NCBI GenBank assembly: GCA_038727515.1
Contig: JAVYVS010000002.1
Coordinates: 75,683 to 139,682 of the forward strand
From: Candidatus Methanomethylicia archaeon
Lineage (GTDB): Archaea; Thermoproteota; Methanomethylicia; Culexarchaeales; Culexarchaeaceae
DNA: 64,000 nucleotides
Reading direction: 5' to 3'
Below the pieces are notes generated by a model. The model made no database searches, was not told the DNA's origin, and saw only the letters and a list, made by a program, of their open reading frames with translations. This document shows, piece after piece, positions 1,039-18,345 of the stretch. The stretch's first letter is position 1, and every line of letters starts with the position of its first letter. Both the position numbers and the translations under genes were made by a program.

Positions 1039-2214
1039 ATGGTTAAACGTGAATATTCTATTGTTTGGATATGGCTTTCAGTAATGCACTTCATAAATGA
1101 TTTTATAACTTCACTAATTCCAGCAATAATACTTGTTTTAAAGTATGAGTGGAATTTAAGTTATTCTAGTCAAGGCTTGTTGACGACTATACCCACATTT
1201 TTCATGGTTTTACCTCAGATTTTTACTGGTCATTTAGCTGATAGAATTCATGTTTCAAAATTGGTATTTACATGTATGTTTATGCTTGGTTTTGGAACTA
1301 TATTGATGGGTTTCTCATACGACTTTAATCAATTTATTATTTCAGCATGTATTATGAGTTTAGGTGCATCCTTTACCCATCCAACAATATACTCTATAAC
1401 CAGTAATCAGTATACTGGTGTTGAAACTAGATTTTTGAGTTTCGTTAGTGCAGCTGGAGATTTATCTTTACCAATAGTTTTTGCTCTCACTGGATTTTTA
1501 TTGAAGTTTCTTGGTTGGAGGATTATATTGTTATGTTATGGATTTATCGTTTTGATTTTAAGTGTAACACTTAAGTATTTTACTTCAACAATTGTGGTAA
1601 AATCTCTACCTAAATATGATTTAAAATCTATATCTTCAATTTTTAAGAGGGTTTTTTATCCATTGATTACCTTAGGTATTATGGTGGCATGTTATAGGAT
1701 AATACTAACTTTTACAACAACTTTCCTAAGTTTCATCGGTTTTATTGGTGAACAAGCGAATTATGTATTTGCACTAATGCTTTTGATTGGTGCTTTTGGA
1801 CCTATACTCATGGGTTTACTATCAAAACCTGGACATGAGGGTAGAATTGTATTTCTAGGTTTAACTCTCATATCTGCATTCTCCTTTATGATTGTACTTA
1901 GTAGGAGTTATTTATCTGCTGGAATACTTTCCCTCTTCCTCTCTATGGTTATCCTTATTATTCTTGGAATATGGCCCTCAATATACTCACTTATATCTAA
2001 AAGTTCTTTTAGTGGTTTAATGGGTTTAACTTATGGTTTTTCATTAACATTTACATGGGCCTTTGGATCTACTTGGCCATTTATAGCTGGTTTAGTATCT
2101 GACGTTTTTGGAATCGAATTTGCTTATTTGATTATAAGTTTGCTATCTATCATAGCTGGATTAATAGTTTTAAAATTTATTTTGCTGGATAAACATTTAC
2201 AAACTATTAAATAA
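1039..2214 (+). CDS. MFS-type membrane transporter
   Basis: 391 aa, about 12 hydrophobic helices with two 6-TM halves, MFS-like topology. Confidence 0.55.
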   Translation: MVKREYSIVWIWLSVMHFINDFITSLIPAIILVLKYEWNLSYSSQGLLTTIPTFFMVLPQIFTGHLADRIHVSKLVFTCMFMLGFGTILMGFSYDFNQFIISACIMSLGASFTHPTIYSITSNQYTGVETRFLSFVSAAGDLSLPIVFALTGFLLKFLGWRIILLCYGFIVLILSVTLKYFTSTIVVKSLPKYDLKSISSIFKRVFYPLITLGIMVACYRIILTFTTTFLSFIGFIGEQANYVFALMLLIGAFGPILMGLLSKPGHEGRIVFLGLTLISAFSFMIVLSRSYLSAGILSLFLSMVILIILGIWPSIYSLISKSSFSGLMGLTYGFSLTFTWAFGSTWPFIAGLVSDVFGIEFAYLIISLLSIIAGLIVLKFILLDKHLQTIK

Positions 2215-2235
2215 CCTTTTGATGTTATATAATTT

Positions 2236-3054
2236 ATGGTTTTAATGAAGTCTAAACCCATTATAACTTTACTAACTGATTTTGGTTTGAGGGATTCTTA
2301 TGTAGCTGAAATGAAAGCTGTTATTTTATCGATATGTCCTGAAGCTCATATTGTTGATATATCCCATGGAATTAGGAAATATGATATTCGTATGGGTGCA
2401 TACATTCTTTCTAGAGCTTCTCGATATTTCCCTGAAGGTACAATTCATGTCGCTGTTGTAGATCCTGGTGTTGGTGGTATTAGACGTCCAATAATTATAG
2501 AAAGTTTTAGAGCTTTCTATGTTGGTCCTGATAATGGTCTTTTAACACCTTCTGCGATTATGGATGGTATTAAACATGTATATTTGATTACAAATGATAA
2601 GTATATGCTTAAATGTGTTTCAAGAACTTTTCATGGTAGGGATATATTTTGTCCTGTGGCAGCGTATTTAGCTAAGGGTATTCCTCCCTCTGATTTCGGT
2701 CCTGAAATTTTTGATCCAATAATCCCAACTTTTGTAAATCCAAAAGTTTATGGAAATATTGTTGAAGGTGAAGTCATTCATATTGATGATTTTGGAAATA
2801 TTGTTACAAATATTTCTAGTGAACATTTAAGGTTAATTGGTTTATCTGAAGGTGATTTTTTGAATGTTAAATTTGGGGATAATCTTTTGAAATTGAAGTT
2901 TTGTAAAGCTTATAGTGATGTTCCATTGGGTCAACCTCTAATTATAATTGGTAGTGGTGGTTTTATTGAATTATCTATTAATCAAGGTGATGCAGCTAAA
3001 ACCTTTAATATTAATGTTGGTGATAAAATTGTTTTTCAGAGTAATGAACATTAG
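2236..3054 (+). CDS. S-adenosyl-L-methionine hydroxide adenosyltransferase (DUF62)
   Basis: Motifs LLTDFG, HVAVVDPGVG, FHGRDIF and IDDFGN match the archaeal DUF62 / SAM hydroxide adenosyltransferase family (e.g. Pyrococcus PH0463). Confidence 0.8.
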   Translation: MVLMKSKPIITLLTDFGLRDSYVAEMKAVILSICPEAHIVDISHGIRKYDIRMGAYILSRASRYFPEGTIHVAVVDPGVGGIRRPIIIESFRAFYVGPDNGLLTPSAIMDGIKHVYLITNDKYMLKCVSRTFHGRDIFCPVAAYLAKGIPPSDFGPEIFDPIIPTFVNPKVYGNIVEGEVIHIDDFGNIVTNISSEHLRLIGLSEGDFLNVKFGDNLLKLKFCKAYSDVPLGQPLIIIGSGGFIELSINQGDAAKTFNINVGDKIVFQSNEH

Positions 3055-3129
3055 ATACTTCCTTACTTAAATCTATGATTTCCTTAAATTTATGGTTAAG
3101 TTTTTATTCTTAACTTATTTAATCTTTGG

Positions 3130-4314
3130 TTGTCTTTGGTGGTTTATTTGGAGCGTAGGTTTCTGCTTATAATTTTAGCTGTTGTTGTTATGATGGTTAT
3201 TAGTATATATCAGTATTCATGGTCTCTATTTGCAGATTCTATAATTTCATGTTTGGGTTGGGATTCTGCAACTGTGGGTTTAGCTTTTACCATATTTACT
3301 TATACTGCAACCTTCATTCAACCTTTCTCTGGATTTTTGGCTGATGTTTATGGTGCTAGGAAGATAGCTATTTTAGCTTCAATAATTTGTGGTTTCGGTT
3401 TTATTTTATCATCTATAGCTGTTTCTCCAATGGTTTTATACTTTTTCTATGGTTTTGGAGGTTTAGGTGTTGGTATATTGTATGGTATTTCAACAGCTAT
3501 AGCTGTTAAATGGTTCCCCGAGAAACGTGGTTTTGCTACTGGTATTGTCGTTTTTGGTTTCGGTTCTGGTGCTGCCATTTTCAATCTCTTTATTCAATGG
3601 CTTATTTCAAATTATGGTTTGAGTTTTACATTTCAATTTATTGGAGTTTTAATTCTCTTCATAACCCTCTTTGCTTCATCTTTTTATTCTTATCCTAAGT
3701 ATTCCAGTGATGTTAAGCGTAGTAGTATAAATGTTAATTATAAACCTTTAGATATGGTTTTAACTTGGCAATGGCCTCTAATATACTTTTCATTTATATT
3801 TACTGTTGCTATAGTTCTAATTTTTGCTGCTCAATTAAAGATGCTTGCTAAAACCTTTAATATCTCTGGGTGGTATTTGAATATAGCTTTATTCCTATTT
3901 CCAATTGGTAATGGATTGAGTAGGATTTTTGCTGGCATCGCTTCTGATTGTATTGGGAGAATTAAGTCAATGTTTATATTCTATTTACTTCTTGGATTGT
4001 CTACTCTATCCTTAATATATCTTGGTGGTAATCCAAATCTATTTGTTATTTTGAGTTTTATTGTGGCTTTATTTGGAGGTTCACCCTTCGCATTTTATCC
4101 TTCTATTATAGGTGATTATTATGGATCTCTTTATGCTACTGCTAATTATGGTTTAACTTATACTGCTAAAGCTTGGGCTGGCTTAATATCTGGCTGGCTT
4201 ACTGGATACTTATATTTGATTTTTGGTTCTTATGATCAAATACTTCTCTTTTTAGCTTTTTCATCTATTATTGCTGCTTTCCTCTCTCTTATTCTTAAAC
4301 CTCCTACTAAATGA
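3130..4314 (+). CDS. MFS transporter (oxalate/formate antiporter-like)
   Basis: 394 aa polytopic membrane protein with a GxxADxxG-type loop (GFLADVYGARK) between TM2 and TM3. Confidence 0.55.
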   Translation: MSLVVYLERRFLLIILAVVVMMVISIYQYSWSLFADSIISCLGWDSATVGLAFTIFTYTATFIQPFSGFLADVYGARKIAILASIICGFGFILSSIAVSPMVLYFFYGFGGLGVGILYGISTAIAVKWFPEKRGFATGIVVFGFGSGAAIFNLFIQWLISNYGLSFTFQFIGVLILFITLFASSFYSYPKYSSDVKRSSINVNYKPLDMVLTWQWPLIYFSFIFTVAIVLIFAAQLKMLAKTFNISGWYLNIALFLFPIGNGLSRIFAGIASDCIGRIKSMFIFYLLLGLSTLSLIYLGGNPNLFVILSFIVALFGGSPFAFYPSIIGDYYGSLYATANYGLTYTAKAWAGLISGWLTGYLYLIFGSYDQILLFLAFSSIIAAFLSLILKPPTK

Positions 4315-4379
4315 TTATTTGTTTCCATTGTAACTCTAATTTTATATTGGTCTTATCCCATTTATCATTTGGGAATTTT

Positions 4380-6323
4380 ATGGTTGAATATAACCCCTTT
4401 GGTTTATTTAGGTCTGAGTGTGTTAATGCTATTTCTAATGCTTTATCAGAACTTGGATATTCTAGTTTTGAATTTTCTTTGGAGTATCCACCTCCTGGTA
4501 TTTCAGCTGATTTAGCTTTTCCAACATTTACACTTGCTAAATCTATTGGGATTAATCCAAATAGATTTGCACTTGATATTGCTTCTAGAATTGATAATTC
4601 AAAGTTTAATTTGATTGGTAGCATTGAAGTTTCTGGTGGTTACATAAATTTTAGGGTTAATTATCCTAAACTTGCACTTATAACTTTTAATTCTATTGAA
4701 TCTCTAGATTTAATGTATGGTTCTATTCCGGTGGATAAACCTTTAAGAATTGTTGTTGAGCATACTAGTGCAAACCCTATTCATCCTCTCCATATAGGTG
4801 CGGGTAGAAATGCCATTATTGGAGATAGTTTAGCTAGAATTTTGAAGTTTATGGGGCATATGGTTAAAACCCATTTTTATATAGATGATGTTGGTCTTCA
4901 GGTTTCAATAGCTGCATATGGTTATATGGGTGTTAAAGATAAGGTTAAGTGTGATTTGAAGTCTGATCATTTTATTGGTTTGATTTATGCTATTACAAAC
5001 TGTCTCATTGAAATTAAACGTATAAATACTCTCTTATCTACTTTGAAATCCTCCAATGCTAATGTTGATGAAATTTCTAAATTGAATTCTGAACTTTCAG
5101 ATTGGATCTCTGTAGCCGCTGAATTGAGGGAAAGGAATCCACATCTTTTTGATGTTTTATCTGACTATATTAATTCAGATCCAGATCCTATTGCCTCAAT
5201 TAATAAGCTTGATTTAGATTATGAAATGGGGTTGAATTATGCTAAGAATATTATTCGTGAGCTTTGTACAATGGTTATTGATGGTTTTAAGAGTACTCTT
5301 TCAAATCTTAATATTGAACATGAATTTTGGGATTGGGAGAGTGATGTTGTTTGGAGTGGTGATGTTAATAGGATTCTTGATAGCCTTAGGAGGAGTGGTT
5401 ATGTTAAATTTGATGGTAATGCTTGGATATTTGATGTGGAATCTGTTTGTAGAGATTTAGGTTTAAAGAAGATTTTAAAGATAGATGAACACCATGAGCT
5501 TCCACAACTTACATTGAGGAGGTCTGATGGTAGAACGCTTTATACAACTAGGGATATCGCTTATACGATTAAACAGTTTAAAGATGCTGATATGGTTATT
5601 CATGTTATTGGCCATGAGCAATCTTTAGCTCAAACTCAATTAAGGGTTGCTTTGGCTTGTATGGGGCTTATGAATTATGCTTTGAATTTAATGCATTATT
5701 CCTATGAATTAGTTCATCTTCCAGGTTTTAAGATGTCTAGTAGACGTGGTAGATATGTGGATCTAGATGGATTATTTAAGGAAGCTGTGGATAGATGTAT
5801 TATTGAAGTTTCTAAGAGGAATCCTAATTTAAGTGAATCTGAAGTTAAAGCTATTGCTAAAATTATTGCTGCTGGAGCTATAAGGTATGCGATGCTTTCA
5901 GTCTCTCCAAATAAAAGGATTGTTTTCGATTGGAATAAGGTTTTAGATTTTAATCAGAATAGTGGTCCCTTTATTCAGTATGCACATGCAAGAGCGTATA
6001 ACATTTTGGATAAGGTGAATTGGGATTATAGTAATTATGATGTTTATAAACTTAAAGATCCATTGGAGCATAGGCTTATAGTGGATGTTGCTAAGTTTCC
6101 AGAGGTTATTTCTGAAACTTATTCTAGACTTAGCTTCGAATCTTTATGTGTATATTTGAATAATCTAGCTATGGATTTCAATTTATTCTATGATAATCTT
6201 CCAGTTTTAAAGTGTGAAGATGAGGGGTTGAGGAATGCTAGAGTTATGCTTGTAAAATCCGTTATGAAGACTTTAAGGAATGGTTTAAATATTCTTGGGA
6301 TAGAAGCTCCAAAGAGAATGTAA
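4380..6323 (+). CDS. argS: arginyl-tRNA synthetase
   Basis: Class-I HIGH-like (ANPIHPLHIGAGRN) and KMSK-like (FKMSSRRG) motifs with a DALR-type C-terminus. The start is moved to the ATG at 4380 (MVEYNPFG...) because the upstream ORF-track extension overlaps the MFS gene. Confidence 0.88.
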   Translation: MVEYNPFGLFRSECVNAISNALSELGYSSFEFSLEYPPPGISADLAFPTFTLAKSIGINPNRFALDIASRIDNSKFNLIGSIEVSGGYINFRVNYPKLALITFNSIESLDLMYGSIPVDKPLRIVVEHTSANPIHPLHIGAGRNAIIGDSLARILKFMGHMVKTHFYIDDVGLQVSIAAYGYMGVKDKVKCDLKSDHFIGLIYAITNCLIEIKRINTLLSTLKSSNANVDEISKLNSELSDWISVAAELRERNPHLFDVLSDYINSDPDPIASINKLDLDYEMGLNYAKNIIRELCTMVIDGFKSTLSNLNIEHEFWDWESDVVWSGDVNRILDSLRRSGYVKFDGNAWIFDVESVCRDLGLKKILKIDEHHELPQLTLRRSDGRTLYTTRDIAYTIKQFKDADMVIHVIGHEQSLAQTQLRVALACMGLMNYALNLMHYSYELVHLPGFKMSSRRGRYVDLDGLFKEAVDRCIIEVSKRNPNLSESEVKAIAKIIAAGAIRYAMLSVSPNKRIVFDWNKVLDFNQNSGPFIQYAHARAYNILDKVNWDYSNYDVYKLKDPLEHRLIVDVAKFPEVISETYSRLSFESLCVYLNNLAMDFNLFYDNLPVLKCEDEGLRNARVMLVKSVMKTLRNGLNILGIEAPKRM

Positions 6324-6373
6324 ATTTATTAGAAAAATTTATTTTTAGCATCATTAACCAAATTAATATTTGG

Positions 6374-8803
6374 TTGGTGATTCCTATTGGTGGAAAGCTT
6401 AGACCTAAGATAGTTGAAAAGCGTTGGGATAGATCTGAAGAGTCTAAGATCATCGATTCTTGGTGGAGTGAGGGTATATATAAGTTCAATTATGATGTTA
6501 ATGATCCTAGACCTATAATTGTATTTGATACACCTCCACCATATGCTTCAGGTCCTTGGAATGTTGGTAATTTAGCTCATTATATGCAGATTGATATGGT
6601 TGGAAGATACTTTAGGATGAGGGGATTTAATGTTTTATTACCTTTCTATGCTGATAGAAATGGTCTTCCAGTGGAAGTTCAAGTGGAGCGTAAACTTGGT
6701 TTAAATATTCATGAGATTGCGTCAACCCCTATTGGTAGAGAGAAGTTCATAGAACTATGTAAGGCTGAATTGGATAATGTTGAGAAACTCCTCATTGACG
6801 GTTTGATTAAAAGTGGATGTAGCTTTGAATATTGGCGTTCTGGAACTGATAGCCCTGAGTATAGACGTATAACTCAAGCTACATTTATTGAGTTATTTAA
6901 GAATAATTTGATTTATGAAGCTGAAAGGCCTGTTAATTGGTGTCCACGTTGTAGAACTACACTTGCAGATGCTGAATTAGAGTATAGATCTAGTTTAGCT
7001 AAGCTCTACTATATTAAGTTTGGTATTCATGAGACTGGTGGGGAAATAGTTATTGCCACCACTAGACCTGAGCTCTTGGGAGCATGCGCCATAGTCATAT
7101 ATAATCCAAATGATGATAGATATAAGCATTTAAAGGGGTTGCATGCTATTGTACCAATATATGATAGAGTAGTTCCAATTGTGGAGAGACCTGAAGCTAA
7201 ACCAGATTTTGGAACTGGGTTAGCAATGATATGTAGTTATGGTGATAGTGTTGATGTAAAGATCTTTAGAGATATGAATCTTGAACCTAGAGTATTAATT
7301 GATAGAGATGGAAGAATGAATGATTATTCAGGCTTTCTTAGAGGGTTAAGTATTACTGAAGCTAGAGATAGTATAGTTAATGAACTTAAATCTAGAAATC
7401 TAATCGTTAAAATTGAAAATATTGAACATGAACATCCAGTTTGCTGGAGGTGTAAGACTTCAATTGAATTTATACATTCCAAAGAGTACTTTTTGAAACA
7501 AGTGGAATTTAAAGAAGATTTAAAGAAGATTATTGATCTTATGATATTTTATCCTGAAGAACATAAGAAGAGACTTATTGATTGGATTACATCTGTATCT
7601 ACTGATTGGCCTATTAGTAAAGATAGATATTATGCCACTGAAGTTCCAGTTTGGAAATGTAAAGTTTGCAATAATATTCTACTTCCAGAGCCTGGTAGAT
7701 ATTATAGGCCTTGGATTGATAAACCACCTTTCAATTTATGTCCAATTTGTGGTGCAAGTATTGATAATATTTATGGAGAAGTTAAAGTTCTTGATACATG
7801 GTTTGATTCATCAATAAGTGTACTATATGTTTCAATGTATGGTGATAAATTATTCGATAAGTTATTTAATAATACCGTTAGACCACAGGGATATGATATT
7901 ATTAGAACTTGGCTTTATTATTCAATTCTAAGAGTTTATCAATTATTGAAAAAACCTGCATTCAAGTATGTTAGGATTAGCGGTATGGGCTTAGATGAAA
8001 AGGGTGAAGCTATGCATAAATCTAAGGGTAACGTTATAGATCCAAAACCATATATAGATAAGTATGGTGTAGATGCATTTAGATTTTGGGCGGCAGCTGC
8101 TTCTAAACTTGGTAGTGATTATAGATTTTCAGAACAGTTAATAAAGACTGGAGCTTTATTTGTAACTAAGCTTTGGAATTTAGCTAGATTTATATCTTCA
8201 TTTCCATTTCCAGAAATTAGTGATGTAGAATTTAGACCATTAGATCTAGCAATGATATCAGCATTAAATAAACTTATTGAAAAATGTATTTCAGCATATG
8301 ATTCCATGGATGTTTATACACCTGCAAATGAAATATACAATTTCGCTTGGAATGTATTTGCGTCACATTATCTAGAAGCGGTTAAATCTAGAGTATATAA
8401 TGAACATGGTAAATATAGGGAATCTCAACAGAAAGCTTCATGGTATACTCTCCATACAGTATTTTCAAATATACTTAAATTGTTAGCACCAATAATGCCA
8501 ATAATAACGGATTCCATATGGAGAATGCTATACTCTAATAGGAGCATACATTTAGAGAGAATAATGGATCCGGATCCAAGATGGAATTATCCTACAAAGT
8601 CGCTTGAATTATTAATTTCAGCCAATAGCAAAATATGGAGTTATAAGAGGAGTATGGGATTACGTTTAAATGATCCATTGAAGGTTGAAGTTAAATTTGC
8701 AATTGAATACAGCGATATTATTGATGAATTAGTAGATTTACATTTATTGATGAACTATAAAATCATTGAATCAACTGGTGAACGCATAGAGTTTCAATCA
8801 TAA
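6374..8803 (+). CDS. valS: valyl-tRNA synthetase (class Ia)
   Basis: An N-terminus like archaeal ValRS (W..W.EGIYKF, TPPPYASG), a KMSKS box (KMHKSKGNV) and an editing-domain region; 809 aa fits archaeal ValRS. The HIGH box is degenerate (WNVGNLAH). Confidence 0.75.
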   Translation: MVIPIGGKLRPKIVEKRWDRSEESKIIDSWWSEGIYKFNYDVNDPRPIIVFDTPPPYASGPWNVGNLAHYMQIDMVGRYFRMRGFNVLLPFYADRNGLPVEVQVERKLGLNIHEIASTPIGREKFIELCKAELDNVEKLLIDGLIKSGCSFEYWRSGTDSPEYRRITQATFIELFKNNLIYEAERPVNWCPRCRTTLADAELEYRSSLAKLYYIKFGIHETGGEIVIATTRPELLGACAIVIYNPNDDRYKHLKGLHAIVPIYDRVVPIVERPEAKPDFGTGLAMICSYGDSVDVKIFRDMNLEPRVLIDRDGRMNDYSGFLRGLSITEARDSIVNELKSRNLIVKIENIEHEHPVCWRCKTSIEFIHSKEYFLKQVEFKEDLKKIIDLMIFYPEEHKKRLIDWITSVSTDWPISKDRYYATEVPVWKCKVCNNILLPEPGRYYRPWIDKPPFNLCPICGASIDNIYGEVKVLDTWFDSSISVLYVSMYGDKLFDKLFNNTVRPQGYDIIRTWLYYSILRVYQLLKKPAFKYVRISGMGLDEKGEAMHKSKGNVIDPKPYIDKYGVDAFRFWAAAASKLGSDYRFSEQLIKTGALFVTKLWNLARFISSFPFPEISDVEFRPLDLAMISALNKLIEKCISAYDSMDVYTPANEIYNFAWNVFASHYLEAVKSRVYNEHGKYRESQQKASWYTLHTVFSNILKLLAPIMPIITDSIWRMLYSNRSIHLERIMDPDPRWNYPTKSLELLISANSKIWSYKRSMGLRLNDPLKVEVKFAIEYSDIIDELVDLHLLMNYKIIESTGERIEFQS

Positions 8804-8805
8804 TA

Positions 8806-9243
8806 TCATATAGCAATTTCTTCAATCAACTTTTTACATAACATGTGTATGTGCTTAGCTCTATTTAGTGAATCTTCAGCATCCCCTCTTCCTATAACAT
8901 CATTTGGAGATAATAGTGCTTCTTCCCCACCATAGAAGCTTATCTCCCTTTTCCCCACCAAAATTTTTGATGATTGAGATATAAAATTCAATTCTTTCTT
9001 AAACCATTCTGGGAATCTATCTTTTACATCAATTAGAACATCAGATACATCATGAATTTTCGGGTATTCTATTCCCACAGCCTTTAATACTGCTTTTAAA
9101 GATAGTTCCACACATTCTTGACTCAACCTTACTGTGTATGGATAATTCTCTTCAATTAATGCATCTTCTGCATCTTTCAATCTAGCTTCTGCCTGTCTCA
9201 AATATGATTTTGCTATTTTAATCAATTTCAATTTTCTCACCAA
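8806..9243 (-). CDS. HEPN-domain protein (toxin-like partner of MNT)
   Basis: 145 aa with a C-terminal R-x4-H motif (RAKHIH) and HEPN-like helices. It overlaps the upstream nucleotidyltransferase gene by 26 nt on the same strand. Confidence 0.65.
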   Translation of the reverse strand: MVRKLKLIKIAKSYLRQAEARLKDAEDALIEENYPYTVRLSQECVELSLKAVLKAVGIEYPKIHDVSDVLIDVKDRFPEWFKKELNFISQSSKILVGKREISFYGGEEALLSPNDVIGRGDAEDSLNRAKHIHMLCKKLIEEIAI

Positions 9244-9970
9244 ACTTGTAATTTGGTTTTAGATCCCAATACCAAAACTTCTTATTAATGAAAATCCTTT
9301 TTGCATTGATTTCTATCAACTTTGATTTAAAATTCAACAATATTCTTTCTAGGAAACTATTTTTATCATACAATACTATTGCTTCCTCAGTTAAATCTAA
9401 GAATAATAGTGGTAGTTTTTCAGCTTCAACTTTACGTAATGGGTAGAAACTCAATCCAGTATATATCCCATTCTTCCTAAGCCAATTCAATTCATCCCTT
9501 AATTTTTCTTCAATTTTAATTAGGCTATCTATTCTAGAGGCTATTGTACCATGAAAATCATCTGAAATCAATAATATATCCACATCACTAGTGTTAGAGG
9601 TAGTACCCCTAGCCACTGAACCATAAATTGCAAAAGATTCTAAACAAATATTCTCCATGATTAATCTTAAACAATCCAATATCAACTTTAAATATGCTTC
9701 TTGCTTCACTTTATCAAAATTCTTTACCATACCTGAAGCTATGAAAATCATGTTTTCAGGATCAATCAATCTATAAATTCTAGGCCTACTTTTCTTAAAC
9801 ACCAATATAAGCCTTTTAGAATGAAGCATGCTAAAAACTACTGAAAGCTTATTATCATCAAATAACAACACATTCTTAGCATCATTAAAAGTAAACAAAC
9901 CTAGTTTAAACTTCATATATAGTTTAGAGTAACATTCACCAAGCCATTTTGGGATCCACAAAGTTATCAT
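9218..9970 (-). CDS. minimal nucleotidyltransferase (MNT) domain protein with extra N-terminal domain
   Basis: Pol-beta NTase signature GSVARGTTSNTSDVDILL (GS-x9-13-DxD). At 250 aa it is unusually long for an MNT. Confidence 0.7.
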   Translation of the reverse strand: MITLWIPKWLGECYSKLYMKFKLGLFTFNDAKNVLLFDDNKLSVVFSMLHSKRLILVFKKSRPRIYRLIDPENMIFIASGMVKNFDKVKQEAYLKLILDCLRLIMENICLESFAIYGSVARGTTSNTSDVDILLISDDFHGTIASRIDSLIKIEEKLRDELNWLRKNGIYTGLSFYPLRKVEAEKLPLLFLDLTEEAIVLYDKNSFLERILLNFKSKLIEINAKRIFINKKFWYWDLKPNYKFGEKIEID

Positions 9971-14098: not shown

Positions 14099-14347
14099 CA
14101 AATACCGGTATTTAAATGGATAAAAATACATTAAAATTCATCATAAAAGGGATTTTTCAGTATTTATCTATATCTTCTAAAAGTAGCTCATCACACAGTT
14201 TTCCCTAATCTTTTCATTTAGTTTTCTATTTTCCTTCTAGTTTCCATGACATTTTTACTCTAAAAAGTTTAATCTCAGCCTTAACCTAGCCATGGACTAG
14301 CGAGGTGTGGACATTAACTTATTTAAAGATCTGAATATGGGAGGTAG

Positions 14348-14422
14348 CGGGCCCGCCGGGATTTGAACCCGGGGCCTCTGGCTCCGGAGGCCAACGCTCT
14401 ATCCAAACTGAGCTACGGGCCC
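14348..14422 (-). tRNA. tRNA-Arg (anticodon CCG)
   Basis: The reverse complement folds as a cloverleaf: acceptor GGGCCCG/CGGGCCC, D arm GCTC..GAGC, anticodon stem TTGGC/GCCAG with loop CTCCGGA (anticodon CCG), T arm CCGGG-TTCAAAT-CCCGG and discriminator G. CCA is not encoded and there is no intron. Confidence 0.9.
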
Positions 14423-14440
14423 GATTTTTCCTATCCGAAC

Positions 14441-14450
14441 ATTTATATAT
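14441..14450 (-). promoter_or_regulatory. TATA-box-like element upstream of tRNA-Arg
   Basis: In the tRNA sense it reads ATATATAAAT, about 19-28 nt upstream of the mature 5' end, as for archaeal tRNA promoters. Confidence 0.35.
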
Positions 14451-14567
14451 CTCTTCCTCCCCTTTTTCTTGATGCGTCTTGGAGAAGTTTAGTTATAGAC
14501 ACGCATTTTCTAAAAGAGCTCTGAGGCTTACGCAGAAGTTAGGGCTTGATTTGATGAGCTTAAGGTT

Positions 14568-15532
14568 TTGAGAAGTGGAAGAACAGCCCACGACTATCTG
14601 GATATGCTTGCTGGTTTTGTTGAAAGCTCTGGAAAATCCCCTAAAGATTTAGTTGGGCTATCTTCCAGTGAAGCATATGATGTTTTGAGGAAATGGGATT
14701 TATCTGAACTTCGCAAATGTTCCTACACTACTGGAAGACTTTATGTTTTATGGAATGCTGTCAAAAACTTCTTGAAATTTCATGGAATTGAGGTGAAAAA
14801 TAAACCGCCTTTCAAGAAGACTGTGAAATACTTGGACAAGATTCCAACGAAGGAAGAGTTAAGGCAAATATTAAATGCAGCTTCAAGCCTTTCAACCAAA
14901 ATTGCCATTGAGCTGATGCGTTATGGAGGATTAAGACCAAAGGACATATGTGATTTAACCTACTCAAGCATAAAAAACGATTTTGAGGGGGGAAGTCCAT
15001 TTGCAGTGTTTGTTCCACAGGCAAAAAGTGACAGCGTTTACGTCACTTTTATTCCGGAGACAACTGTTGGGCTGATTCGCCAATATTTTAGGTTTAGGGA
15101 AAGTAAGGGAGAGAAAATAATTGATAAAAGCCCTATAATAGCAAACCCGAGGTATCCAAGCAAAGGGATTAGGAGAAAAACGTTAACAGCCAAAATAGAA
15201 AAGGTGATTGCTAAGAGCGGAATTCAATCGCAGTTAACCTTTGGAAACAAAATTCAGAGAATTAGGCCCTACAGTTTAAGAAAGTATTTTTAGGAGCAAT
15301 TTAACTGGGCATGCCCCAAACGAGTATATTGAGGCTTGGCCACACCTCCGGCTTAGAGCATGTATACAGCGGGACAAGGGATCTGGACCCTTCCACAATT
15401 GAAAGGATGCGTGAGGTTTACAAGAGATGTGAACCTTCCCTTTTAGCCACAGCCCAACCGCTAGATCAAAATTCCTTGGTTACAGAAGCAAAAATAGAAG
15501 CCTTGAAAAGCATAGCAAAAAGCCTCCTATGA
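14568..15532 (+). pseudogene. tyrosine recombinase/integrase, disrupted by frameshift and stop
   Basis: ORF 14568-15293 carries the catalytic Arg box (LRPKD) and box II (IRPYSLRKYF). The H/Y box (LGHTSGLEHVYSG) continues in another frame at 15311-15532 after in-frame stops at 15291 and 15302. Confidence 0.65.
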
Positions 15533-15750
15533 ATAGACCTGCTCGATGTTAAAGTTGCAAAAGAAAGGCAGATTGGAAGAGAGTTAAGCAAGGACGAAGA
15601 ACTCTAGCTTTACGAGAAAGAGCTGAAAAAACTAAGAGAGGGAAAACATAACCCCCAAAGGATAATACATGAAAGAGAGCTTGAAAAATACATTTCCCAA
15701 GAAGACATAAAGAAGGTTAAAGAACTGATTATAAAGGCGATCATGGAGAA

Positions 15751-16332
15751 ATGAGCGAAAATTTTGAGGAACTCTTATTTGCGGACATTCTTGTCAGAAA
15801 AATTGAAATTAAGGAGATTTCGCCTTGCACCGCCGACCCGGAAAGGATTAAGTTTTTGGCGCAGGCTGACAAGCTCCTAGAAGATGTTTTGCCGATTCTC
15901 TATTTGGCTATTCCAAACGCCAAATACTCCGAAAAGCTCGGCGCATTAAGCTACGTGTACCAGCAACACCTGATAACCATTTTCGCTAATGGCAGAATCA
16001 GCATGACCTACGTCAAAGATAGAAACGAGGCAAACCAACTCGTCGAAGAGGCTAGGCAACTAATAAACCGCGCCATCATATACCTGAAAACCCATGGAAA
16101 GCCAAGCCCCGAAATGATTCATGCCAAAAAAGAATTAACACCAGTAAAGATTTACGAGTTGTTGCCGAAAACGAACTGCAAAATGTGCGGGGAGCAAAGC
16201 TGCTTCGCTTTTGCAGCCAAACTTCTAAACGGAGAAAAAACATTGCAGGACTGTCCACCATTGGAGTCTAAGGAGTACGAAGCCTTCAAGTTTCAAATAG
16301 AGAGGATGATGAATCCAATTAGGCTGAAGTAG
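15751..16332 (+). CDS. Fe-S cluster-binding domain protein (PF04060-like CxxCGxxxCxxFA...C motif)
   Basis: The C-terminal CKMCGEQSCFAFAAKLLNGEKTLQDCP matches the 'putative Fe-S cluster' domain seen in CdhE/RACo-type proteins. The gene is GC-rich. Confidence 0.45.
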   Translation: MSENFEELLFADILVRKIEIKEISPCTADPERIKFLAQADKLLEDVLPILYLAIPNAKYSEKLGALSYVYQQHLITIFANGRISMTYVKDRNEANQLVEEARQLINRAIIYLKTHGKPSPEMIHAKKELTPVKIYELLPKTNCKMCGEQSCFAFAAKLLNGEKTLQDCPPLESKEYEAFKFQIERMMNPIRLK

Positions 16333-16379
16333 AAGCTTTTAAGAAACATATTTAAATATTTTAATCTCACTATTTATGC

Positions 16380-16766
16380 TTGGTAAACAAAATGCTTGAA
16401 TCTAAAATTGATAAAAGGCTTATGAGGTTGATAAGTTCCGGACGTTGTCCTCATGAAGATCCGCAGAGATACGTTGCTGAGCTAAGACATCTTGCGGATG
16501 ATGTGGCGAGGGTTGATGAGGCTGAGGAGCGATGCAAATTTTTTAAGGCTTTGGCGGACACGACGAGGCTTAGGATTTTGAAGCTTTTGGGCGTTAGGGA
16601 AATGTGTGTTTGCGAGGTTATGATAGCCCTTGATTTAACCCAGCCAACAGCTTCGCATCACTTAAAAATACTGGAAAACGCTGGGCTAGTTAAAGGCAGA
16701 AAAAAGGGAAGATGGGTATACTACAGCGTTAAGAATCCAAAGATAATTGAAAGTATGTTTCAGTAA
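16380..16766 (+). CDS. ArsR/SmtB-family metalloregulatory transcription factor
   Basis: HTH signature ALADTTRLRILKLL..., a metal-site CVCE and a recognition helix ending ...ASHHLKIL. Confidence 0.8.
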   Translation: MVNKMLESKIDKRLMRLISSGRCPHEDPQRYVAELRHLADDVARVDEAEERCKFFKALADTTRLRILKLLGVREMCVCEVMIALDLTQPTASHHLKILENAGLVKGRKKGRWVYYSVKNPKIIESMFQ

Positions 16767-16779
16767 GACTTTGCAAGCC

Positions 16780-17076
16780 TTAACGGTAACCGTATTTCTC
16801 TCGCAATTCTCTAAGCATCTGCTTAAGTTCCTGCCTTGAAGGGAAGCTTATGGCTCCCACTGGGCACCGCGGTCTACATGACTCGCATCCTACTAGACAA
16901 TTGTAAGGTCTTGCAACAACTACCTTGTCGCCCTGCTTTTCGTAAACATGTTCATGGCAGAATTCCACACAGATTCCGCAACCAATGCAAAGCTCATGAT
17001 TAATTGTTGGAAACCATTTAATCTCCTTTCGCGGTATCCCTAAATACGTTTTCTCCTCGCCCATCTTACGCGCCAA
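16780..17076 (-). CDS. 2x[4Fe-4S] ferredoxin-like protein
   Basis: Two cysteine clusters, CIGCGICVEFC and CLVGCESCRPRCP. Confidence 0.7.
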   Translation of the reverse strand: MARKMGEEKTYLGIPRKEIKWFPTINHELCIGCGICVEFCHEHVYEKQGDKVVVARPYNCLVGCESCRPRCPVGAISFPSRQELKQMLRELREKYGYR

Positions 17077-17455
17077 CCACCTTACTTACAGCTTCCTCAA
17101 CCTTCTTCATGGCCTCTGCCGTCTCCATATTCCTCAAATCCAGAGAAATTACTTGCTTGTCAAAGTCTAAGCCCTTTTCAGCAAAAGCGTCCTTAAACAT
17201 TTTCCTCTGCATCCTTGGGTCGCATCCACCGATAATGTATATTTTGTCTTTATCCGTTTCCTTCAAGTAATCCCTGAGAAAGTTGTCCCCATCCGTGACG
17301 CAAAGCTGAGGATGGATTATAGCGTATTCTACGTCAAGCTCATTTCTAACAAAGTTTATAAACTTCCACAAATCCAACTTTGCAAATCCGGGACATTCAC
17401 CAGTACAGAAACACATTATAAATCTTGGCAATTTCCTCTCACTCATATTTTTCAC
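17066..17455 (-). CDS. MvhD/FlpD-like (hydrogenase delta-subunit family) small redox protein
   Basis: FIMCFCTGEC near the N-terminus and a ...IIGGCDPR... region resemble the methyl-viologen-reducing hydrogenase delta subunit (PF02662) layout. Similarity is weak. Confidence 0.35.
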   Translation of the reverse strand: MKNMSERKLPRFIMCFCTGECPGFAKLDLWKFINFVRNELDVEYAIIHPQLCVTDGDNFLRDYLKETDKDKIYIIGGCDPRMQRKMFKDAFAEKGLDFDKQVISLDLRNMETAEAMKKVEEAVSKVVGA

Positions 17456-17538
17456 CTTGTTAGTTGAAGATTATATTTAAACATTTAAATTTATCGTTTT
17501 GAAGTTTCCATTTTAAAGGAAAATTGCGTTAATTTTGA

Positions 17539-17919
17539 CAGCTATTATTAGAAGCCACTCGTGCAGACCTATTTACCACAGACCTGGCCATATATGAAGC
17601 CTGTAACAGCCTCTGGAAGCTTTCAACATTATTGAAATCAATATCCATAGAGGATGCCATAGACACCGCCACCACGATAAAAGACTTAGCCACAAGAGGC
17701 GTGATAAAAACAATAAAATTCACAAAACTAGACTTTTCCCACACATTTCAAATAGCTTACAAAGAAGGGATAACCTTCTACGACGCCTCATACATAGCAA
17801 CAGCTAGAAACGCAGAAGTCACCCTAGTAACAGAAGACGAAAAACTAAAGGAAACAGCAAGAAAATTCATAAAAACAATAACATATTCAGACCTCGAAAA
17901 CAAACTAACTCAAACCTAA
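17539..17919 (+). pseudogene. N-terminally truncated PIN-domain (VapC-like) remnant
   Basis: The C-terminal PIN signature ...ITFYDASYIATARNAEVTLVTEDEKL is present. The open frame begins only after a stop at 17536, so the first acidic strand is missing and no antitoxin gene precedes it. Confidence 0.45.
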
Positions 17920-17986
17920 CAGCCAAAAATGAAAGTGTATCTGAAAACGCGCGAATACCATAGATATAGGTTCGGATAGGATTTTT

Positions 17987-18011
17987 CCTATCCATGCTGA
18001 GCTACGGGCTC
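17987..18011 (-). repeat. duplicated 5' fragment of tRNA-Arg (putative att repeat)
   Basis: The reverse complement GAGCCCGTAGCTCAGCATGGATAG matches tRNA positions 1-24 with 3-4 mismatches. It is followed by a copy of the tRNA-upstream motif GGATAGGAAAAAT. Confidence 0.5.
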
Positions 18012-18123
18012 AATTTTCATGGATTATTTCACTTTATTTTTAATGAATTCTCAATTTTGTTATATTTTTGTTTAAGTTTATTATATAAGTTTCTTTGCAT
18101 AATTTATGTTATTGGTGTAAAGT

Positions 18124-18345
18124 TTGGGTAAAATTGATAGGGGCGTCAATTGTAGTATTGTTGATTGCAATAAATCTGCTATTCGCTCATTATCTTATTC
18201 TGAGTTTTCTAAAGTTGCACCTAAAGCTGGGTTAAGTATTGGCTCTAATGCTCCACGTAGAGTTTATCTCTGTGAGGATCATTATAAGGTTTTTAAGAAG
18301 TTTTTGAGGAAGGAGAAAATGTATGAGAAATGGAGATATGGTTAG
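18124..18345 (+). CDS. small zinc-finger protein (C-x4-C ... C-x2-H), hypothetical
   Basis: 73 aa with CSIVDC ... CEDH. It overlaps the start of polB in another frame. Uses a TTG start. Confidence 0.3.
   Translation: MGKIDRGVNCSIVDCNKSAIRSLSYSEFSKVAPKAGLSIGSNAPRRVYLCEDHYKVFKKFLRKEKMYEKWRYG

Follow-up and report, generated by a model that had tools for sequence, protein, structure and literature searches.

Elements integrated at tRNA genes are commonplace in archaea, as are the decayed remnants that they leave behind. Compared to the 3′ part of a tRNA gene, the 5′ part is reported to serve much more rarely for recombination (Krupovic et al. 2019, PMC6563490), and a 2021 review of the archaeal tyrosine recombinases describes targeting of the 5′ half as unique, within the archaea, to the pTN3-like integrases (PMC8371274). 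In these systems the integrase promoter drives the rebuilt tRNA (PMC8371274), and the enzymes are suicidal, with a split integrase gene (int) and 41 bp of identity between the attachment (att) sites (Cossu et al. 2017, PMC5495485). CalSub-E1 of Candidatus (Ca.) Caldiarchaeum subterraneum, a single reported case, is also among the closest known systems (Krupovic et al. 2019, PMC6563490). The suicidal and pNOB8-type archaeal integrases share 40–50 bp at their att sites, while sites of 8–13 bp are documented as well (PMC8371274). Here, we describe an insert at the tRNA-Arg(CCG) gene of a Candidatus Methanomethylicia archaeon, located in a stretch of 64,000 nucleotides (nt) that was analysed as a whole (the window; GCA_038727515.1, contig JAVYVS010000002.1, positions 75,683 to 139,682). 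The segment 14423–17996, enclosed by two repeated 15-nt cores, is very probably the dead remnant of a small integrative element. Although a remnant of this sort is ordinary, the end of the tRNA gene at which it sits and the family to which its integrase belongs are less so.

The insert adjoins an intact tRNA-Arg(CCG) gene (14347–14422, minus strand), which was recognized by ARAGORN and by the Rfam tRNA model (67.9 bits) and is the single tRNA gene that ARAGORN reports in the window. An Rfam scan of 13–19 kb found nothing besides this gene. The 5′ end of the gene faces the element, and its sequence shows zero differences among the strains compared. Positions 1–15 of the tRNA constitute the core of the left attachment site, attL (CTGAGCTACGGGCCC in plus-strand reading, 14408–14422), and the same segment bounds the conserved arm in the alignment. 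A copy of these 15 positions with one mismatch, the core of the right attachment site attR (CTGAGCTACGGGCTC), lies 3.6 kb away at 17997–18011, so that direct repeats stand at both borders and one of them is located inside an intact tRNA gene. The 15-mer CTGAGCTACGGGCCC has two matches, against 0.01 expected from shuffled sequences, far more than a chance match of the tRNA fragment would give, and the likeness widens to 26 of 30 identical positions when 14399–14428 is compared with 17988–18017. The 15-mer is perfect at attR in two contigs of the same species (L082 and L110), and the mismatch in the window is therefore a recent point change. Just inside the direct repeats lies a 22-nt inverted repeat (14429–14450 and 17960–17981, 86% complementary) with a 12-nt core, TCCTATCCGAAC, that occurs exactly twice against 0.09 expected. 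The inverted repeat is absent from the initial annotation of this locus, a reading of the bare sequence that had otherwise proposed the intact tRNA beside a tyrosine integrase and its 15-nt copy, both as found here. The same annotation rightly called the GC content anomalous, but its figure of 45–50% for the interior is too high: the insert averages 40.4% GC against 31.9% in the rest of the window, and 400-nt windows between 14200 and 17999 range from 0.36 to 0.46. The insert is thus foreign to its host in composition, and it is foreign in gene content as well, with the best homologues of int and cargo on contigs of Bathyarchaeia and Nezhaarchaeales type.

The integrase gene stands next to the tRNA gene, on the plus strand, as a pseudogene (14480–15700; Pfam PF00589) that covers amino acids (aa) 1–413 of a 431-aa protein. 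The open reading frame (ORF) 14568–15293 matches PF00589 (Phage_integrase) with an E-value of 2.7e-7. The tyrosine-recombinase motifs GLRP..., PQAKS, RPYSLRKYF and LGH...Y are recognizable across three frames of an inactivated gene; the RPYSLRKYF sequence (an HxxR-type box), the next helix RSNLTGHAPNEYIEAW and the LGH...Y box each fall in a different one. Alignment of the intact homologue P0002 to the window by tblastn places aa 1–22 at 14479–14544, aa 19–275 at 14523–15290 and aa 292–413 at 15335–15700, again in three frames. Relative to intact genes, and with gaps taken from the comparison with the integrases of contigs L086 and L088, the damage comprises three frameshifts, three stop codons and the loss of the 3′ end: a 10-nt deletion near 14521–14528, TGA for Trp at 14547–14549, a 3-nt deletion near 14992, an extra T (+1) near 15287–15291, a 5-nt deletion near 15332, TGA for Gly at 15530–15532, TAG for Glu at 15605–15607 and the loss of the last 18 codons. 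The initial annotation was correct that the integrase is frameshifted, but with a single frameshift in place of at least seven lesions it understated the damage.

A database search with the stitched protein retrieved intact homologues (P0001 and P0002) of 417–431 aa and 85–89% identity, and homologues of this length sit whole beside tRNA genes. Further relatives carry the source names Candidatus Bathyarchaeales (P0004), Bathycorpusculaceae (P0027) and Nitrososphaerales (P0008), and the contigs examined that hold intact close relatives have a GC content of 42.7–47.1%. Only 34 sequences reach E ≤ 1e-30 in a library of 1.84 billion representatives. At the nucleotide level the window integrase is 80–84% identical to the active copies, and the differences at first, second and third codon positions number 48/36/159 against L086 and 49/36/119 against L088. 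Because the differences are concentrated at third positions, most of the divergence arose under selection and the inactivation is comparatively recent.

The nearest curated relatives of this integrase are the archaeal XerA proteins, chromosome-dimer resolvases (PDB 4a8e, NCBIfam NF040815). They share the tyrosine-recombinase fold and the catalytic motifs, and the match to 4a8e has an E-value of 6.9e-9. However, the NCBIfam score of 69.9 bits is far below the family cut-off of 220 bits, XerA measures about 290 aa compared to 431 aa for the present integrase, and XerA is a housekeeping dif recombinase whereas the present enzyme is element-borne and associated with tRNA genes. In its architecture the insert conforms to the classical integrases (type II, pNOB8-like, lambda-paradigm): int is left intact by integration and lies at the element end beside att, here with aa 1–413 contiguous at the left end, a tRNA gene is the target, and the element lies between direct repeats. 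It departs from them in its short core, since pNOB8-type att sites measure 40–50 bp, in an attB within the tRNA gene's 5′ half, listed in the review for the pTN3-like enzymes only, and in an extension of about 100 aa after the catalytic Tyr, which is found in family members and has no Pfam match. With the pTN3/TKV4-type elements of Thermococcales the insert shares exactly this position of attB in the 5′ part of the tRNA gene, evident here from the repeat and from 29 of 35 family loci, and the separation of the rebuilt tRNA from its presumed original promoter, with the putative integrase promoter region placed beside it. In contrast, pTN3 carries its attP within the int ORF, which is split on integration, whereas the present int stays whole beside attL; the identity between pTN3 att sites extends over 41 bp compared to a core of about 10–15 nt; and the hosts are Thermococcales in the one case and Bathyarchaeia- and Methanomethylicia-type archaea in the other. 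The likeness to pTN3 is drawn from att architecture; the nearest curated match of the present integrase is XerA.

The nearest relatives of the host, judged by family-B DNA polymerase (PolB), are a Methanomethylicia metagenome-assembled genome (L002, 82% aa identity) and Ca. Culexmicrobium thermophilum (L003, 71%). In the latter the site is empty, as the initial annotation had suggested might be seen in related strains: a gap of 92 nt that contains nothing else separates tRNA-Arg(CCG) from PolB and the conserved Zn-ribbon gene of 74 aa. This empty site belongs to a different species, and none was found within the species of the window. In the window the corresponding place is held by the tRNA stub (17997–18011), 113 nt from the 73-aa gene, while the intact tRNA gene lies 3.6 kb away. 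The gene in question (18124–18345) is a Cys-rich, Zn-ribbon-like ORF of 73–74 aa without a Pfam match, which overlaps the start of the polymerase gene and is conserved in both relatives. Between stub and gene lies what was originally the upstream region of the tRNA (18012–18101), displaced by 3.6 kb from the gene that it would once have served as promoter. The insert itself is present with the same junctions in four further contigs (L082–L084 and L110; two from ENA, one each from Logan and JGI), with 98.8% identity over 20.6 kb of L082. Taken together, the empty site, the repeat and the intact homologues beside other tRNA genes bear out the proposal of a decayed, immobilized element of foreign composition at tRNA-Arg(CCG).

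The locus in L002 is of another kind. Its homology to the window covers the tRNA gene and 30 nt past its 5′ end and resumes at 18102, and the intervening 344 nt hold a relic of the integrase N-terminus (FSCKYKLLKRAFKLYEG compared to FSYRYTLSKRALKLYEG). Because of this relic, L002 is read as the scar of a related element and not as an empty site. The scar could derive from one ancient insertion, common to the species of the window and of L002 and followed by unequal deletion, rather than from two independent insertions at the same tRNA gene. This possibility is suggested by the diverged left arm and integrase relic that L002, with a PolB 82% identical, carries at the very same tRNA, but we regard it as doubtful. 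The identity of the window integrase to active copies and the third-position bias of its differences, which point to recent inactivation, argue against a shared origin. Furthermore, the two species share only about 74% identity in host coding DNA, so that a neutral relic shared between them should be unrecognizable, and the insert retains 40% GC in a genome of 32% GC.

The two ends of the element are formed by short arms. The left arm (14423–14479) is the 57-nt divergent intergenic region between the tRNA gene and int, in accordance with an integrase N-terminus that begins 57 nt from attL. It reads GATTTTTCCTATCCGAACATTTATATATCTC..., runs GATTTTTCCTATCCGAAC...TTTATATA beside tRNA-Arg(CCG), and contains the 14-nt sequence GATTTTTCCTATCC (14423–14436), one arm of the inverted repeat and the TATA-like box TTTATATA (14442–14449), which is located 20–27 nt away from the tRNA gene and some 30 nt away from the TTG start of int. 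The right arm (17960–17996) holds the other arm of the inverted repeat (17960–17981), a hairpin GGATAGGA-TTTT-TCCTATCC (17974–17993; fold z = −3.9), the second copy of GATTTTTCCTATCC (17980–17993) and CCTATCCATG, which resembles a tRNA D-arm. This architecture is conserved at the attR of L086. The left arm recurs almost identically beside tRNA-Lys(TTT) in L086, L087 and L095, beside tRNA-Arg(GCG) in L088–L090, L093 and L096, and beside intron-containing tRNAs in L091, L097, L100 and L119. It is also found in L085 at a junction without any tRNA, and it is not present at the empty site of L003. Since it accompanies many tRNAs as well as non-tRNA DNA and is missing from the empty site, the left arm is element DNA. 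An assignment of 14423–14452 to the host, based on the sharing of this segment with L002, was rejected on the same grounds and in view of the integrase relic in L002. The sequence CCTATCCATG, which precedes the attR stub, is likewise assigned to the element because L086 has it in its attR too. The D-loop of the intact tRNA is of the host type (TTT), as in L002 and L003.

Strand exchange would have taken place within tRNA positions 1–15, and probably within the first ten, GGGCCCGTAG, because the sites at tRNA-Arg(GCG) and tRNA-Lys and the L085 junction share only this sequence with the arm side. The attP that can be reconstructed from the two ends would read GGTTCGGATAGGA-TTTTTC-CTATCCATG-[CTGAGCTACGGGCCC]-GATTTT-TCCTATCCGAAC, or, as right arm, core and left arm in short form, GGTTCGGATAGGATTTTTCCTATCCATG-CTGAGCTACGGGCCC-GATTTTTCCTATCCGAAC..., and would consist of a tRNA-like 5′ segment between inverted arms and two direct copies of GATTTTTCCTATCC. 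The tRNA-Arg(CCG) gene itself may then be regarded as a chimera, in which positions ~16–76 would be derived from the host and the putative promoter from the element, with positions 1–15 as the shared core. Among about 20 other family loci, a search for attR (16-mer with at most two mismatches, 11-mer with at most one mismatch, and the right-arm motif) recovered it only in the species of the window and in L086; the other elements extend past the 1.6–9.3 kb of downstream DNA at hand, usually at least 4.4 kb. A transposon-like reading, based on inverted repeats with a target duplication, was also considered and rejected, as the repeat is the tRNA core common to the att sites of the family and the enzyme is a tyrosine recombinase.

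The sister element in L086 shows what the backbone of the insert looks like when complete. The unit measures 2.24 kb and runs from tRNA-Lys and the left arm through int and the genes for a VapB-like protein (74 aa) and a PIN protein (144 aa) to an attR as in the window. Of the PIN gene the window retains a VapC-type remnant (17539–17919, plus strand), in which Pfam PIN matches the C-terminal half only. By tblastn, 17539–17904 corresponds to aa 20–141 of the 144-aa L086 protein in one frame and with 78% identity, and the region is 82% identical at the nucleotide level to L086 5156–5523. The truncation of the PIN gene had been noticed correctly in the initial annotation; the VapBC module as a whole is incomplete in the window, where vapB and the first 19 PIN codons are missing, and complete in L086. 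Two further observations concern L086. Another JGI contig, L087, matches it at 99.8% identity across host flank, tRNA-Lys and integrase, and diverges completely from about position 4805, some 90 nt after the int stop codon, with vapB-PIN and attR in L086 compared to ABC-transporter-type genes in L087; this split could reflect alternative cargo or an assembly break at the element. In addition, a second, partial Phage_integrase ORF (126 aa, 8870–9250) lies at the contig end of L086, about 3.3 kb past attR.

In the window, the place of the int 3′ end, vapB and PIN codons 1–19 is taken by a 1.85-kb block of cargo (15701–17538). Its junctions are sharp: homology to int ends at 15700, homology to the chromosomal loci L142–L144 starts at 15702, and homology to PIN resumes at 17539. 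The block encodes a 193-aa Fe-S protein (PF04060; 15751–16332, plus strand), an ArsR/SmtB-family regulator (16380–16766, plus strand), a 98-aa 4Fe-4S ferredoxin (Pfam; 16780–17076, minus strand) and a small Cys-rich protein of 129 aa (17066–17455, minus strand), and the Fe-S and ArsR genes are intact in the window. Pfam matches support the Fe-S, ArsR and ferredoxin genes and the PIN fragment as initially annotated. The fourth gene was described there as MvhD-like, for which we find no Pfam match; instead, the protein weakly resembles the N-terminal ~90 residues of HdrA only (E 1.4e-4), and its homologues in Bathyarchaeia, Brockarchaeota and Odinarchaeum (85–93% identical) bear the JGI name 'HdrA-like polyferredoxin'. 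The Fe-S protein has homologues of 85–90% identity in Bathyarchaeia and Nezhaarchaeales, and 15702–16332 is 88% identical at the nucleotide level to the chromosomal Fe-S loci L142–L144 from the promoter region of that gene onward. In the Bathyarchaeia loci L145–L147 the ArsR gene adjoins the Fe-S gene. Elsewhere the homologues of the cargo are chromosomal and stand together with ArsP_1 permease and Thioredoxin_3 genes and with more ArsR and ferredoxin genes. The window holds a fragment of this usual cluster: the ArsP_1 permease is missing, as are the Thioredoxin_3 genes and a 119-aa gene that normally separates the HdrA-like gene from the ferredoxin. None of the cargo genes was found in the other int loci, and the cargo is therefore not a feature of the family. 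From this arrangement we read the block as a putative secondary capture that would have deleted part of the backbone.

Comparison between strains shows how the insert has fared since. Host genes adjacent to it differ by 0.5–1.1% between the window and contigs of the same species, whereas the int, Fe-S, ArsR, ferredoxin and PIN segments differ by 2.4–3.1% and contain insertions and deletions. Several of the integrase lesions are specific to one strain or the other, and in L082 and L110 the Fe-S gene is frameshifted by a 5-nt insertion and the ArsR gene carries a 1-nt deletion. Only the 129-aa gene departs from this pattern, with a difference of 0.8%, which could be due to chance or to residual constraint. 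Apart from that gene, the pattern is the one expected if the whole insert, cargo included, is in neutral drift, as the strain alignments suggest. The competing proposal is that the element is dead while its Fe-S, ArsR, ferredoxin and HdrA-like cargo is expressed and selected as a redox or metal-sensing module. In support of such a domesticated islet, the four cargo ORFs are full length in the window with homologues of equal lengths, the 129-aa gene has hardly diverged, and the genes derive from a neighbourhood conserved in many hot-spring archaea. Nevertheless, the proposal is unlikely, given the disrupted Fe-S and ArsR genes of L082 and L110, the divergence of three of the four genes at more than the rate of their host neighbours, and the fact that the block is a mere fragment of the usual cluster.

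A remnant of an SSV1-type provirus or plasmid (type I, 'suicidal') at tRNA-Arg(CCG) is highly improbable. The initial annotation drew this parallel from the isoacceptor, which is indeed the same: SSV1 of Sulfolobales integrates at an arginyl-tRNA gene (PMC9608457), it does so by a tyrosine recombinase, and such an enzyme adjoins the tRNA here. However, the SSV1 integrase is split and uses the 3′ part of the tRNA, whereas the present gene occupies one end of the element and is contiguous from its start codon up to aa 413, and the repeat consists of tRNA positions 1–15 and not of the downstream 3′ half. The right end holds a PIN remnant and no Int(N) fragment, an architecture that refutes the parallel. 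The nearest curated relatives are XerA, as described above, the element encodes no capsid or other viral genes, and the integrase has no match in the GenBank phage records and no relative among the IMG/VR viral contigs in a search with the integrase alignment; among the PLSDB plasmids, tblastn gave a single match of 25% identity to an unrelated archaeal plasmid. As the integrase is unsplit, classical and XerA-like and the repeat is the 5′ end of the tRNA, the parallel with SSV1 is a coincidence of isoacceptor. That the repeat arose by chance or that Bathyarchaeia DNA was joined to a Methanomethylicia contig during assembly, as a metagenome-assembled origin and GC shifts at both borders might suggest, is hardly conceivable with a repeat far beyond chance, with borders that coincide exactly with the att-type repeats and the end of homology to relatives, and with identical junctions in contigs from five sources (NCBI, two from ENA, Logan and JGI).

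The dead remnant of an integrative element thus remains the favoured explanation, and a course of events can be proposed for it. The element would have entered a Methanomethylicia/Culexmicrobium-type chromosome through site-specific recombination by its tyrosine recombinase, between the attP of the element and the first ~10–15 nt of the tRNA-Arg(CCG) gene, GGGCCCGTAGCTCAG. As the crossover would lie at the 5′ end of the gene, the tRNA body would have stayed on the left, joined to the left arm of the element with its TATA-like box, and the original upstream region, together with the 15-nt tRNA stub, would have been displaced 3.6 kb to the right. The ancestral backbone was presumably int-vapB-PIN, of the kind found in Bathyarchaeia-type contigs, in which a 1.85-kb piece of a chromosomal redox/ArsR neighbourhood would have taken the place of the int 3′ end, of vapB and of the PIN start. 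Following this capture the integrase would have gathered frameshifts and stop codons, leaving an element that is no longer mobile by its own enzyme and an insert that may drift neutrally in the species. With respect to the donor, two metagenome samples are informative: ENA ERZ27245617 contains the host with the dead element (L083), an intact integrase (L085) and the Fe-S locus (L143), and JGI 3300025090 contains L110, L089 and L144. Transfer from a Bathyarchaeia-type donor into a Methanomethylicia-type host, by way of the shared tRNA 5′ sequence, would be the most economical reading.

Several observations weigh against this account. All four cargo ORFs are intact in the window strain, so that some residual function is possible. 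The L002 scar might mean that the site was already occupied in a common ancestor, which fits poorly with 82% nucleotide identity to active copies. The repeat core is only 15 nt, while suicidal and pNOB8-type att sites are longer, and the TATA-like box of the window, at −20 to −27 from the mature 5′ end, lies slightly nearer than the usual archaeal spacing. Finally, neither an attP nor a circular form could be recovered for any member of the family, nor any terminal contig overlaps, and both the attP sequence and the crossover position given above are for this reason matters of inference.

The family to which the integrase belongs provides the wider context. A metagenome scan with an alignment of 16 integrases yielded 54 loci, 35 of which were examined for tRNA genes. 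A divergent tRNA gene lies upstream, with its 5′ end 50–137 nt from the start of int, in 29 of these 35; the other six comprise three loci cut by the contig end inside tRNA-like sequence, two with a tRNA 5′ fragment only, and one outlier of 28% identity. Among the targets are the tRNAs Arg(CCG), Arg(GCG), Lys(TTT), Pro(GGG) and His(GTG) as well as several with introns, for which the anticodon calls are uncertain. Integrases at least 80% identical use both of these Arg isoacceptors, Lys(TTT) and several tRNAs with introns. Ten more distant relatives (28% identity or less) have no tRNA on the DNA fetched, and the association with tRNA 5′ ends is accordingly confined to the clade of at least 40% identity. 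Of 25 arms, highly diverged ones included, 20 have the TATA-like box (TTTATATA or a close variant) at a distance of 18–27 nt from the tRNA 5′ end, and the left arm is predicted to be a divergent promoter region serving both the tRNA and int. Its retention in L002 suggests that it was kept as the tRNA promoter after the death of the element. Members of the clade occur in hot-spring and sediment archaea, several with Bathyarchaeia-type source names, and the core GGGCCCGTAG is common to many archaeal tRNAs. Larger members carry HerA/DUF87 ATPases, MCM, SNF2 with DUF499, or ABC genes, and their cargo looks plasmid- or island-type. 

A few loci of the family show unusual layouts. In L085 (9900–10010) the closest intact integrase (P0002) has a full left arm and no tRNA; a degenerate piece of ~22 nt resembling a tRNA 5′ end (GGTCCATAATTGACTACGGGCCC) connects the arm to the 3′ end of a Lys/Glu-rich ORF of 93 aa, and the junction may represent a secondary site, an array of tandem copies or something akin to attP. 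In L101 (880–995) an integrase of 59% identity has upstream of it only an 18-nt tRNA 5′ fragment, preceded by a degenerate second copy of core and arm (ATACGGGCCTATTTTAATAAATTC), a layout that suggests integrations in tandem or in succession; an MCM-family helicase (6244–8634) is encoded on this contig as well. Many of the contigs L088–L100 begin within the tRNA or immediately after it, 25–200 nt upstream of the integrase, which is consistent with assemblies breaking where an element sits in several genomic contexts. Downstream of the 90%-identity integrase of L090, a possible defence island (1726–9348) encodes a metallo-beta-lactamase-fold protein, an SNF2/DEAD helicase with NOV_C and a DUF499 protein of 995 aa. 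In the host DNA of the window, about 4.5 kb to the left of the element, two overlapping minus-strand genes (region 8806–9970; 145 aa, 8806–9243, and 250 aa, 9218–9970) are annotated in the source with Pfam HEPN and NTP_transf_2 and look like a HEPN-MNT toxin-antitoxin pair.

Taken alone, the remnant is a routine case of a tRNA-linked island that has lost its mobility. The wider proposal, for which we see the case as evenly balanced, is that the integrases form a classical, XerA-like clade of ~430 aa that would use the first 10–15 nt of tRNA genes for recombination and place a divergent promoter, brought along by the element, in front of the tRNA, that the shared core could allow crossing between archaeal classes, and that the left arm may be kept as a promoter after the element has died. 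A classical integrase clade that targets tRNA 5′ ends, with a short core, several tRNA targets and an element-borne putative promoter arm surviving as a scar, is a new variant compared to the systems described above; no description of such a clade was found in the literature searched, which is not proof that none exists. As a rule, this classical clade does what the 2021 review reserves for the suicidal pTN3-like enzymes, namely the targeting of tRNA 5′ ends. The element arm is presumably the promoter of an essential host gene, which would give a simple reason for the persistence of the scar in L002. The intact integrase relatives and the near-identical Fe-S gene in metagenome samples of the host species suggest gene flow between archaeal classes. 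If the proposal is true, the tRNA-Arg(CCG) of this organism depends on DNA of foreign origin.

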